From: a phage
NCBI GenBank assembly: GCA_024674815.1
Contig: GCA_024674815.1_4104.1
Length of the DNA stretch: 64,000 nucleotides
Reading direction: 5' to 3' (one strand)
Shown: positions 5,945 to 51,840 of the stretch, in pieces
Numbering within the stretch: position 1 is the first letter of the stretch
Layout of the letters: each line of letters begins with the position of its first letter
Notes under the pieces: model-generated
Databases searched by the model: none
Seen by the model: only the letters and a program-made list of their open reading frames with translations
What the model was told of the DNA's origin: nothing
Program-made: the position numbers and the translations under genes

Positions 5945-5975
5945 AACTGGCTGACCGAAGTCAACCACTTTTTCA
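5945..5975 (-). terminator. terminator hairpin with UUCG loop, TTGACT -35 embedded
   Basis: GGUUGAC-UUCG-GUCAGCC in minus transcript; TATTAT 17 nt downstream. Confidence 0.5.
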
Positions 5976-38687: not shown

Positions 38688-38718
38688 CAAAAAGGGCCGA
38701 CCGAAGTCAACCCTTTTC
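38688..38718 (-). terminator. UUCG-loop terminator with embedded promoter -35
   Basis: GGGUUGAC-UUCG-GUCGGCCC + U-run; TTGAC in stem, TATAAT ~18 nt downstream. Confidence 0.5.
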
Positions 38719-38721
38719 TTG

Positions 38722-39843
38722 TTATTGTTTTACACCACCCCATTTTTCATAGATGGCAATAATTTTATCTATGTTGTTTGGTGTCGTAGTTTCAGTATAC
38801 CCATCCGGCATTTCACGTTTAGTTAAAATACCTTTTCCAAACAGTTTCTTGCATTCTTTTTCAGCTTGCTTACACTGTTCTACCGTTGGGAATAGATAAA
38901 AACATATTATTTCAACATTAAATACTGATTTACTATTTTGCTGGTAAACACGTTTCCCTTTTTGTTTTTCAATACCATATTTCAATGCAACGGGTAAACC
39001 ATTGTCTGAAATATTATTAATATAAGCATATTTCTGTGAAAGCCCAGCAGCAAGTGGATGTCCCTGACCCTTAAAAAAATTACTTGGTAGAATATCAAAC
39101 TCACCAAATTCAGGATCAATAATAGTTACTTTTGTTTTGTTATTAATATAATTAACTTTACTATAATCAAAATCAACATCAGTTCTTCTTTTTTTTGCTT
39201 CTTCAATGAATTGCTCTGTTGTTTTTTTTACGGTGCCACCACGCATTGGATGTCCACTACCACTCAAAAAATTACCAGGTGTAACTTCAAACTCACCAAA
39301 TTCAGGATCAATAATAGTTATTTTTGTATGATAATTAATATAATTAACTTTACTATAATCAAAATCAACATCAGTTCTTCTTTTTTTTGCTTCTTCAATG
39401 AATTGTTCAGTTGATGATGAGCGTGATTTTTTTTGTACCATTCTACCACGTGCAAAATGATTTATACCACTCAAAAAACTATTTGGTAGAATATCAAACT
39501 CACCAAATTCAGGATCAATAATAGTTATTTTCGTTTTAGCATTAATATAATTAACTTTACTATAATCAAAATCAATATCAGTTCTTCTTTCTTTCGCTAA
39601 AGAAATAAAGTGTTCTTTGGATTGTGTAAGTTTTTTTGATATTTTTTGTCTTCCACGCATAAGATGTCCACTACCACGTAGAAAACTATCTGGTGTAATA
39701 TCAAACTCACCAAATTCAGGATCAATAATAGTTACTTTTGTTTTGTTATTAATATAATTAACTTTACTATAATCAAAATCAACATCAGTTCTTCTTTTTT
39801 TTGCTTCTTCAATGAATTGTTCAGTTGTTTTTTTAGCACACAT
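38722..39843 (-). CDS. 4x ~65-aa repeat protein with C-terminal GIY-YIG/T5orf172-like region (373 aa)
   Basis: four tandem repeats ...FDYSKVNYIN-KTK-TIIDPEFGEF...; C-term assignment tentative. Confidence 0.5.
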   Translation of the reverse strand: MCAKKTTEQFIEEAKKRRTDVDFDYSKVNYINNKTKVTIIDPEFGEFDITPDSFLRGSGHLMRGRQKISKKLTQSKEHFISLAKERRTDIDFDYSKVNYINAKTKITIIDPEFGEFDILPNSFLSGINHFARGRMVQKKSRSSSTEQFIEEAKKRRTDVDFDYSKVNYINYHTKITIIDPEFGEFEVTPGNFLSGSGHPMRGGTVKKTTEQFIEEAKKRRTDVDFDYSKVNYINNKTKVTIIDPEFGEFDILPSNFFKGQGHPLAAGLSQKYAYINNISDNGLPVALKYGIEKQKGKRVYQQNSKSVFNVEIICFYLFPTVEQCKQAEKECKKLFGKGILTKREMPDGYTETTTPNNIDKIIAIYEKWGGVKQ

Positions 39844-40105: not shown

Positions 40106-40135
40106 CAAAAAGGGCTGACCGAAGTCAACCCTTTA
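40106..40135 (-). terminator. UUCG-loop terminator/promoter element
   Basis: conserved GGGCTGACCGAAGTCAACCC. Confidence 0.5.
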
Positions 40136-40137
40136 TG

Positions 40138-40497
40138 TTATTCTAATTCACTCATAGTAGTAATAGTTAAGCCCATTTCTTCTGCAATGTTGCATAACAG
40201 ACCAACTGCATTACGAAGAATATCAGTGTTGTCCACCGAGAATGATGAGTTTTCATTTACAGTTGAAGACTCAATGTAGTACTCAAAATAACGAGAAGTT
40301 GAACGCACAACTTTAACACCTTCATACTTCTGTAGTTCATAGTTGATACGCTCGATGAGTGAATCTTCCAGTACTCGATAGTCACCATTCATTCCACGTT
40401 TCCATCCATCAGCAGGACGGAAATAAAAAGTTTTTGTACGTTGAATTGTTGAGATTGTTAGTGGGTTGTATTCCGCGATTTCACTTAAAGATGCCAT
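40138..40497 (-). CDS. hypothetical protein (119 aa)
   Basis: ATG ORF; TTGACA-17-TATTAT promoter ~40515-40550. Confidence 0.55.
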   Translation of the reverse strand: MASLSEIAEYNPLTISTIQRTKTFYFRPADGWKRGMNGDYRVLEDSLIERINYELQKYEGVKVVRSTSRYFEYYIESSTVNENSSFSVDNTDILRNAVGLLCNIAEEMGLTITTMSELE

Positions 40498-40603: not shown

Positions 40604-40798
40604 CTAATCCTCGCTGAAGACAACAATAAGGAATGACACGAACAATGCCGCATAACAAGGAGCTATCTTCATGTACCACGGTACTTCATAATACCATGTA
40701 CCCAATTCATCCCACGAAAAGAGTATACTCAAACCGAAGCCGATTAGCGATAGTACAATAAAAGAAATCCAGAAACGCTTTGAATATACTAATAACAT
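40604..40798 (-). CDS. small membrane protein (64 aa)
   Basis: two hydrophobic segments. Confidence 0.45.
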   Translation of the reverse strand: MLLVYSKRFWISFIVLSLIGFGLSILFSWDELGTWYYEVPWYMKIAPCYAALFVSFLIVVFSED

Positions 40799-40836
40799 GT
40801 TATGTTCCTTTGTGTAACCGAAGTCAATCCTTTCCT

Positions 40837-41352
40837 TTAATAATTATTCATTTCATCTTTGATTTGTTCTTCAATTTCGTCGAACATATCAGTACTAGAT
40901 TCGTTCTTACTACTTACGTTCTGCATATCTTTAACGTACTGTGGACATTCAACATCAGTAAACTTATACCACGTAGGCTTCATCTGGAGCTTCTCAATCA
41001 AACGATCACGAGACATTTTAATCTCTGACTCCGATGGTACATAGTCATTACAAAACTCAGCAGGGAAGCCGCTAATGTCGTTTACTTCAGTGTTTTGAAT
41101 CTTCATACCACGACGCAGACATTCGTTGACAATATCAATATGACGCTTCTGTAAGTACAGTAACTTGTCGTAGAAAAATGTTACATGACCTGAACCTAAC
41201 AGATAAGTACTGTTAATTTTGAAATCACGTACACGCTTACGTGCTTGAACGTGTTTTTGTACAGCACCAAATACACGTGGGAGTTCACGATATTCAGCCA
41301 TCAGATGTTGGTCAGCAAGTTCTTTAACGTGTACTAAGTTAATGCGTGTCAT
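40837..41352 (-). CDS. denV: endonuclease V, pyrimidine-dimer DNA glycosylase (T4 DenV homolog) with C-terminal extension
   Basis: N-terminal ~130 aa recalled as near-colinear with T4 DenV (MTRINL...[21 protein letters not shown]...). Confidence 0.8.
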
Positions 41353-41387
41353 GTATTCATCCTCTCGTTTCGATGAAATGATTATAG

Positions 41388-41420
41388 CAAAAAGGGCCGA
41401 CTGAAGTCAACCCTTTTTTT
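41388..41420 (-). terminator. UUCG-like terminator/promoter element
   Basis: conserved hairpin; TTGACT-18-TATAAT upstream of denV. Confidence 0.5.
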
Positions 41421-41506
41421 CTTTCAATCAAACATAGTCTACCAGAATGTACCATGCGATGGTGATTAGAACAAAGAATCATACACTTCTTCATTGTTTA
41501 ATCCAT

Positions 41507-45960: not shown

Positions 45961-45988
45961 AAAAAGGCTGACCGAAGTCAACCCTTTT
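45961..45988 (-). terminator. UUCG-loop terminator/promoter element
   Basis: GGCTGACCGAAGTCAACC. Confidence 0.5.
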
Positions 45989-47043: not shown

Positions 47044-47073
47044 AAAAAAAGGCTGACCGAAGTCAACCTTTTG
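47044..47073 (-). terminator. UUCG-loop terminator
   Basis: GGCTGACCGAAGTCAACC. Confidence 0.5.
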
Positions 47074-48387: not shown

Positions 48388-48418
48388 GAAAAGGCTGACC
48401 GAAGTCAACCTTATTTTG
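48388..48418 (-). terminator. UUCG-loop terminator
   Basis: GGCTGACCGAAGTCAACC. Confidence 0.5.
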
Positions 48419-51812: not shown

Positions 51813-51840
51813 AAAAAAGGCTGACCGAAGTCAACCTTTG
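51813..51840 (-). terminator. UUCG-loop terminator/promoter element
   Basis: GGCTGACCGAAGTCAACC. Confidence 0.5.

Follow-up and report, generated by a model that had tools for sequence, protein, structure and literature searches.

We identified, in a 64,000-nucleotide stretch of phage DNA (the window), an intact denV gene whose predicted product is a pyrimidine-dimer DNA glycosylase/AP lyase with a C-terminal tail added to it. This tail is probably a docking or self-regulating peptide, and we tentatively favour the reading that the intact gene carries an optional, tethered short linear motif which docks in trans to a partner protein. The enzyme itself is known, and the gene has already been deposited and annotated in many genomes; what is new is the optional accessory peptide tethered to a known phage base-excision repair (BER) glycosylase. 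In a literature search, we found no paper that discusses the DenV tail or describes one for the T4 endonuclease V family.

Identity and setting of the denV gene

The DenV protein was 100% identical to the products of genes from the Escherichia phages vB_EcoM_CRJP21 and E9.1, and 99.4% identical to gp217 of 121Q, which is annotated as 'endonuclease V'. The Asteriusvirus genes carrying this annotation (121Q gp217, E9.1, JP4 and Sharanji) are the same gene, at 99-100% identity, with 171 aa and the tail present. Because the protein is 99-100% identical to the CRJP21, E9.1 and 121Q genes, the window is assigned by sequence to an Asteriusvirus jumbo phage of the 121Q/PBECO4 group that infects E. coli. 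We take Asteriusvirus to be a jumbo myovirus of ~350-380 kb within the RaK2-like group. The gene is surrounded by a long series of small same-strand genes whose function is not known, and it is preceded by its own strong promoter and a Shine-Dalgarno sequence (Table 1). A structured RNA and an antisense gene were also considered at this locus and rejected, as Rfam gave one sub-threshold chance match, outside denV, and the plus-strand ORFs over denV are short and run antisense to a conserved CDS.

Table 1. Features of the denV locus in the window
Feature	Position	Strand	Residues or motif	Remarks
denV CDS	40837..41352	minus	1-171	ATG ORF from the ORF list; 171 aa and TAA stop
Catalytic core	40960..41352	minus	1-131	Gap-free colinearity with T4 endonuclease V
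C-terminal segment	40921..40959	minus	132-144	Common to all RaK2-like jumbo-phage DenVs; replaces T4 YGKAIYA
Linker	40891..40920	minus	145-154	S/T/N-rich; length and sequence variable (tail alignment)
Terminal peptide	40840..40890	minus	155-171	Conserved acidic amphipathic helix, 17 aa, net charge -6
Direct repeat 1	40924..40929	minus	GATATG	Codons D142-M143; left end of the 39-nt deletion
Direct repeat 2	40885..40890	minus	GATATG	Codons D155-M156; right end of the 39-nt deletion
Shine-Dalgarno	41360..41366	minus	GAGAGGA	7 nt 5' of the denV ATG; read from the sequence
denV promoter, sigma-70-type	41381..41410	minus	TTGACT, 18 nt, TATAAT	11/12 matches (promoter scan)
PeSL-like copy	41395-41410	minus		Just 5' of denV; -35 hexamer of the denV promoter in the stem-loop
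Degenerate PeSL-like element	40812..40827	minus	TTGACTTCGGTTACAC	Begins ~10 nt past the denV stop

The core is that of the T4 endonuclease V family

The original prediction had taken the protein for a DenV homolog whose first ~135 residues are nearly colinear with T4 endonuclease V. Both statements held: sequence, Pfam, catalytic residues and predicted fold supported the homology, and the alignment of residues 1-131 with residues 1-131 of the T4 enzyme was ungapped (E 1.8e-54 to PDB 2END). Identity to T4 was 64.9% by tblastn (~65% over 1-131), and the Pfam match to PF03013 scored 55.8 bits against a cut-off of 23. In an alignment of 90 sequences, T2, R3, R22, E23, R26 and R117 were invariant, while K121 was invariant in an 8-sequence alignment and at least 90% conserved in the 90-sequence one. 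In the 1VAS complex, Arg3, Arg22, Arg26, Arg117 and Lys121 are the basic DNA-contact residues. The N-terminus of the protein reads MTRINL, with Thr immediately after the initiator Met. In T4-PDG, the alpha-amine of Thr2 acts as the Schiff-base nucleophile; its proton-transfer partner is the active-site Glu, numbered Glu23 in the gene and Glu22 in the processed protein (PMC3285167).

The AF2 model of the protein reached a pLDDT of 91.1, with the core above 90, and Foldseek aligned it to 2END with an E of 8.5e-17, a target-normalised TM of 0.94 and an rmsd of 1.2 Å over 133 columns. The all-alpha, three-helix fold of T4 endonuclease V is present in this predicted structure. Sequence and modelled fold agree on every point in marking the denV product as a bona fide member of the family, with the fold and the catalytic residues of the T4 enzyme (2END, 1VAS, 2FCC). 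At UV-induced cyclobutane dimers, the predicted enzyme would incise the DNA by means of the Thr2 alpha-amine and Glu23.

The C-terminus carries a variable linker and a conserved acidic peptide

T4 DenV has 138 aa and the window protein is 33 aa longer; beyond the last alignable residue, 40 aa follow in the window protein versus 7 in T4. The extension had been put at ~35 aa, which agrees with the 33 aa beyond T4, and the C-terminal ending quoted for it matched the ORF exactly. However, residues 132-144 are present in every RaK2-like jumbo-phage DenV (144-147 aa) and so are not peculiar to the window gene, which narrows the distinctive part to residues 145-171. Where T4 endonuclease V ends at 138, the window DenV instead has the 132-144 helix followed by a 27-aa linker and acidic helix. 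AF2 predicted this helix from residue 138 on, and the equivalent block of the metagenomic cluster P0009 (141-150) had a pLDDT of ~90. As delimited by the alignments, the distinctive tail is therefore residues 145-171, 27 aa with a net charge of -6, consisting of a linker and a terminal peptide. The lengths and C-terminal ends of the DenV proteins are compared in Table 2.

Table 2. DenV proteins by length and C-terminal end
Type	Length	C-terminal end	Examples
T4-type	138-142 aa	...WYKYYGKAIYA	T4, Serratia phage 92A1
Jumbo short	144-147 aa	132-144 segment (P.YY..M[LI]), no tail	PBECO4, RaK2, GAP32, CBB, Kaldavass
Jumbo long	158-179 aa	Short-type segment + linker + ...EMNNY	window, 121Q, ph0011, XbC2, P0003, P0008, P0009

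The linker is 10 aa long in the window, 6 aa in ph0011 and ~18-22 aa in P0008, P0009 and XbC2, and it is reduced to 0 aa in P0003 and P0004. The terminal peptide has the consensus D.[FLY][DEN][EDN][IV]E.QIK[DEN]EMNNY, in which E, Q, I, K, E, M and N were invariant across variants from three lineages. Its last residue is Y in the Asteriusvirus and XbC2/P0009 alleles, and P0008 terminates in ...EMNLE. The hydrophobic residues of the window peptide are M156, F157, I160, I164, M168 and Y171, and its hydrophobic moment of 0.51 was matched by 0.2% of shuffles; the XbC2 peptide was similar. In the AF2 model of the window protein, the tail formed part of a single continuous helix (138-169) that included the short linker, with a pLDDT of 70-82. 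In the P0009 model, the linker (155-163) was disordered (pLDDT <50) and a separate terminal helix (164-177, pLDDT ~50-57) showed no confident packing on the core. The AF2 alignment held only ~7 tail-bearing rows, so that the missing intramolecular contact is weak evidence.

The heptad-like spacing of F157, I160, I164, M168 and Y171, on so long a predicted helix, would suit a coiled coil by which the amphipathic helix dimerises DenV. Such self-association is very improbable, since homomeric pairing would be electrostatically unfavourable at a charge of -6 with just one lysine in 17 residues, the helix has only ~4 turns, and the T4 endonuclease V crystals 2END and 1VAS hold one chain per entry.

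The tail also changes the charge of the enzyme. Residues 1-144 have a net charge of +4 (pI 9.0) and the full protein one of -2 (pI 6.2), whereas T4 DenV has +5 (pI 9.4) and PBECO4 DenV likewise +5. This shift speaks for the main alternative to docking, in which the tail is autoinhibitory and mimics DNA: the acidic helix would fold back, in cis or between molecules, on the basic DNA-binding face of DenV, reducing its non-specific DNA affinity and tuning electrostatic, processive scanning. The processive scanning of T4 endonuclease V is salt-sensitive and depends on positive charge, which the tail cancels. Processivity of the T4 enzyme on UV-irradiated DNA was reportedly found by Lloyd et al. 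in 1980. Moreover, the acidic tail of T7 gp2.5 is said to compete with ssDNA for the same surface, a result attributed to Marintcheva et al. in 2008. Nevertheless, we consider autoinhibition unlikely. The linker-free alleles P0003 and P0004 retain the peptide, although a fold-back would be expected to constrain linker length, and the strict hydrophobic positions together with QIK.EMNNY exceed the needs of a generic polyanion. AF2 gave no confident docking of the helix on the core either, a point to which the shallow tail alignment lends little weight.

The tail is accessory and was found in three lineages

A tail of equal length, within a 171-aa ORF, was present in 19 independently sequenced Asteriusvirus genome records, and homologous but diverged tails were found in Xanthomonas phage XbC2 and in the metagenomic clusters P0008 and P0009. 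Of the 1101 records with a DenV match in the phage collection, 20 carried the tail (19 Asteriusvirus and XbC2), as did 6 of the 120 best protein clusters, among which the modal lengths were 138 and 144 aa. It had been asked earlier whether the extension might be absent on resequencing or typical of DenV homologs, and these counts answer both questions in the negative. The tail was missing from about half of the Asteriusvirus records and from most other jumbo-phage DenVs. Because many close relatives lack it, the tail is dispensable in nature and is an accessory part of the protein.

In a tree built from the core only, the tail-bearing proteins fell into three separate clades, namely Asteriusvirus, P0008 beside the short P0012, and XbC2/P0009 beside Kaldavass, and long and short alleles were interleaved within Asteriusvirus. 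This pattern indicates repeated tail loss or lateral exchange of the 3' end. Other homologs bore unrelated C-terminal extensions (P0013, P0015, P0017 and P0025), and SD-2_S15 a 242-aa fusion. The tail of P0025 (181 aa) was not significant against the tail HMM (score -0.1) and was excluded from the count of homologs.

Nothing except the difference in length from T4 points to an artefact, be it a sequencing or assembly error or the read-through of a 138-144-aa gene by way of a mutated stop, and the probability of this explanation is negligible. The recurrence of the ORF in the 19 genomes excludes a sequencing artefact, and the tail is conserved as protein in other genera. The check for a mutated stop that accompanied the original prediction was negative: tail-less relatives differ by indels or by replacement of the 3' end (~340 nt in PBECO4, ~87 nt for Kaldavass versus XbC2), not by a stop change, and the DNA alignments revealed no tail-coding remnant past the stop codons of the short alleles.

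The 3' end of denV lies in a recombining region

The short RaK2-like DenVs (PBECO4, RaK2, GAP32, CBB and Kaldavass) have the core and the 132-144 segment in common with the window DenV, but they stop at about residue 144 and the tail DNA is absent; the Asteriusvirus 3' end from about codon 136 is another haplotype. DNA identity between the window and PBECO4 ended after codon 135, the long and short 3' haplotypes splitting from about codon 136, and resumed at the promoter of the next shared gene. The ~340 extra nt of the window comprise the long-type 3' end, the tail and a 64-aa ORF with two TM segments. XbC2 (179 aa) and Kaldavass (144 aa) have the same flanking genes, and the ~87 nt by which they differ are exactly the tail. 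Both long and short alleles occur in three jumbo-phage lineages.

A pattern search found 9 copies of a promoter-terminator composite on the minus strand of the window, where chance alone would give 0.04. The element consists of a stem-loop, GGGTTGAC-TTCG-GTCAGCCC, and a T-run, with a TTGACT -35 hexamer within the stem and TATAAT 18 nt on. It matches the description of the PeSL cassettes of T4-type phages, promoter-terminator elements that have been reported as mediators of modular shuffling in these phages (PMC2839356, PMC4122927). One copy lies just upstream of denV, and a degenerate one follows the stop codon (Table 1). The latter was kept after the stop in the window, in UE-S1 and in P0003 despite their differing downstream genes, and it marks the boundary beyond which downstream gene cassettes vary among phages. 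On the 5' side of denV, an HNH homing-endonuclease gene that is intact in fEgEco12 and EC.P1 was reduced to its last 24 codons. Tail-bearing alleles adjoined at least 4 different downstream genes, indicating that the tail is not tied to one neighbour. We propose that long and short alleles are exchanged or lost by recombination in this hyperplastic region, bounded by PeSL-like repeats and homing-endonuclease genes.

Such a locus invites the view that the tail is a neutral appendage, extra codons that hitch-hike on the exchange of denV 3'-end cassettes through PeSL repeats and homing endonucleases. Several results favour this view: the tail is dispensable and about half of the Asteriusvirus records do without it, the unrelated extensions of other homologs show that the C-terminus tolerates additions, and the gene sits at a recombination hot spot, flanked on either side by PeSL-like repeats, where an HNH remnant precedes it and the genes that follow vary. 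The conservation of the terminal peptide itself, however, argues against neutrality and makes it improbable, as set out below.

Signs of constraint on the terminal peptide

Among seven Asteriusvirus alleles, pN/pS (Nei-Gojobori) was 0.10 in the core and 0.62 over the tail as a whole; for the terminal 17 codons it came to 0.38, a figure based on very few substitutions. Between the window and XbC2, synonymous sites were near saturation (pS 0.5-0.7) and the linkers could not be aligned, but the last 9-13 residues were conserved and the last 9 differed by one D/E exchange only. When the window, P0003 and UE-S1 alleles were aligned as DNA, the 158-aa P0003 and P0004 alleles proved to derive from an in-frame deletion of exactly 39 nt, which removed 13 linker codons between two GATATG direct repeats (Table 1) and left the peptide in place. 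The cores of P0003 and P0004 diverged from each other after this deletion. The conservation of the peptide despite saturated pS, together with the in-frame deletion, argues at the sequence level for protein-level constraint on the terminal peptide and for none on the linker.

These results bear directly on the neutral appendage. The peptide was conserved in three lineages whose cores are only ~70% identical, with synonymous sites near saturation and a linker free to diverge; the reading frame was kept through the 39-nt deletion; and the strong amphipathicity of the helix is non-random.

A possible docking motif acting in trans

The original prediction had proposed a regulatory or interaction tail. 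The anatomy fits this proposal, with a variable linker and a conserved peptide kept in frame, and a partner or a regulatory effect is what we infer from it. More specifically, we infer that the terminal peptide is functional and works by docking in trans. Short linear docking motifs typically take the form of a brief, conserved amphipathic peptide on a variable tether, which is why we read the tail as one, and because linker lengths from 0 to 22 aa are tolerated, action in trans is favoured over binding to one fixed site in cis. The flexible, fast-evolving S/T/N-rich linker would be the tether and the 17-residue helix the docking motif, whose acid-framed hydrophobic face (M156 to Y171) would bind a basic or hydrophobic groove of the partner. 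This partner would most likely be a phage or host protein of DNA metabolism, and docking would recruit DenV or pass on its nicked product. Several observations count against docking. The tail is dispensable, and its terminal peptide, with a pN/pS of 0.38, is under weaker constraint than the core, at 0.10. The C-terminal aromatic residue is also not invariant, as the P0008 end shows.

One version of the docking reading, which we hold to be possible but doubtful, is that the helix is a dedicated peptide linking DenV to a repair or replication hub particular to jumbo phages, such as the phage SSB, DNA polymerase, RNase H or ligase. Docking to such a hub would couple dimer incision to downstream processing. 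Searches for the tail on other proteins gave the following results. A tblastn search with the tail against 50,697 phage records returned DenV C-termini only, and the tail HMM, run on stop-to-stop segments of the window and 23 loci, found DenV only, apart from a chance match to 11 internal residues of a membrane protein. An exhaustive tail-profile search of a representative library yielded 4 matches, all of them internal repeats of unrelated repetitive proteins; each 50% cluster is represented in this library by a single sequence, and the tail-bearing DenVs were not retrieved either, so this is a weak negative. A tail-profile search for protein homologs returned nothing and missed the known positives too, and is thus uninformative. 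Across the window, the other loci compared, the phage collection and the representative library, the terminal peptide was on no protein other than DenV, so that nothing points to a docking motif in common use.

Two specific kinds of peptide were also considered. Among ~35 inspected protein C-termini, none was a clear match that would make the tail a mimic of the acidic C-terminus of the phage SSB. In the replication module of RaK2, no gene is labelled gp32. A sliding-clamp-binding peptide (T4 gp45-binding or PIP-like) was disfavoured on two grounds. According to the RaK2 genome paper, a gp45 homolog is not detectable in the RaK2 phage group (PMC3622015), and in QIKDEMNNY, by inspection, an Asp rather than a hydrophobic residue occupies PIP position 4.

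Comparison with other acidic and non-catalytic tails

The layout of the DenV tail, a flexible linker followed by a conserved acidic end, resembles that of the tails of several ssDNA-binding proteins. In the A-domain of T4 gp32 and the C-terminal end of E. coli SSB (SSB-Ct), a flexible linker leads to an acidic peptide in which hydrophobic or aromatic residues are key; tails of this type engage other proteins and can compete with DNA for a basic surface. As a precedent for the docking reading, T7 gp2.5 contacts other replication proteins through its acidic C-terminal tail (PMC10359462). The likeness to these three is one of analogy: DenV is a glycosylase and not an SSB, and its tail ends in a longer amphipathic helix instead of a short DDDIPF-type tip. 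The SSB-type tails would form a work-alike class and not a homology family with the DenV tail. A conceptual analogue may be seen in eukaryotic glycosylases, where the non-catalytic C-terminus of NEIL1 and N-terminus of UNG2 recruit partners or modulate DNA scanning. The sequences and folds of these extensions are unrelated to the DenV tail, and they are much longer.

Implications for phage base-excision repair

T4 endonuclease V is a textbook case of a repair enzyme that works alone, and DNA-damage assays and skin-repair formulations make use of it. If the tail is selectively maintained, phage base-excision repair could be partner-wired or self-regulated, and the natural pairs of tail-plus and tail-minus alleles offer material for studying the effects of charge and tethering on lesion search. 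Should the tail be neutral, the locus would still illustrate cleanly how 3'-end cassettes are exchanged in a hyperplastic jumbo-phage region. If docking to a repair or replication hub holds true, the T4 endonuclease V family would gain in the terminal peptide its first described recruitment motif, and phages a counterpart to the tails through which eukaryotic BER glycosylases bind their partners.

A putative composite promoter-terminator repeat

A composite element occurs in nine copies on the minus strand of the window, as against 0.04 expected by chance. It consists of a UUCG-loop stem-loop and a T-run; the stem contains a TTGACT -35 hexamer, which is followed after 18 nt by TATAAT. This element, carried here by a RaK2-like jumbo phage, resembles the PeSL promoter-terminator stem-loop cassettes through which T4-type phages shuffle genes (PMC2839356, PMC4122927).

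Composite elements across the window, and genes near denV, in window positions
Feature	Position	Strand	Details
PeSL-like element	5949-5964	minus	
PeSL-like element	38695-38710	minus	
373-aa ORF	38722-39843	minus	four internal repeats of ~90 aa (TTEQFIEEAKKRRTDVDFDYSKVNYIN...IIDPEFGEF...)
PeSL-like element	40113-40128	minus	
64-aa ORF	40604-40798	minus	two predicted transmembrane segments; homologous to 121Q gp218
PeSL-like element	40812-40827	minus	degenerate
PeSL-like element	41395-41410	minus	
HNH homing-endonuclease gene, 3' remnant	41411-41488	minus	last 24 codons, KCMILCSNHHRMVHSGRLCLIERKKG
PeSL-like element	45966-45981	minus	
PeSL-like element	47051-47066	minus	
PeSL-like element	48393-48408	minus	
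PeSL-like element	51819-51834	minus	

Genes around denV

Phages fEgEco12 and EC.P1 carry a full HNH homing-endonuclease gene directly upstream of denV, and its remnant in the window persists only within a spurious 45-aa ORF overlapping the denV promoter. Two genes downstream of denV, the 373-aa ORF is probably a homing-endonuclease-type gene; its C-terminus is similar to RaK2 ORF115 and RB49ORF239c, and in relatives it is annotated as an HNH endonuclease or DUF4379 protein. The 64-aa ORF falls within the ~340-nt segment missing from PBECO4, whose DenV is short and tail-less. It was found in 121Q and UE-S1 but is absent from other phages with a tailed DenV, and is therefore not linked to the tail.

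In Salmonella phage SD-2_S15 (OR699181.1; L009:2501-3229), a 242-aa protein annotated 'endonuclease' joins DenV residues 1-136 in frame to a homolog of the 119-aa protein encoded downstream of denV at window 40138-40497. Either a deletion has truly fused the two genes or the assembly is wrong here; matches in the sister records SD-6_S16 and SD-1_S14 were split or truncated.

On the plus strand, opposite to denV, at least 12 paralogous genes of ~370-400 aa follow one another in tandem; in phage E9.1 their annotation reads 'regulator of chromosome condensation' (RCC1-like). The window position of the array, approximately 20300-33300, was derived from locus L018:27501-40513.

Acidic or aromatic C-termini on other proteins

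P0025, a metagenomic DenV homolog of 181 aa from a GAP32-like clade, ends in a distinct 35-aa acidic, aromatic-rich tail (...HDEFSEVADATWNEYYQENHF). Since this tail showed no significant similarity to the HMM profile of the DenV tail, it may be analogous and of independent origin.

The annotation of RaK2 58-128 kb (L022 and L023) labels no protein as a gp32-type SSB. Several replication-module proteins in this region bear acidic or aromatic C-terminal peptides, among them the DNA polymerase (...STAQDFGFFS), ORF112 (...EDSGDF) and ORF119 (...DDDEEEGYY), which suggests that docking peptides at the C-terminus may be widespread among RaK2-like phages.
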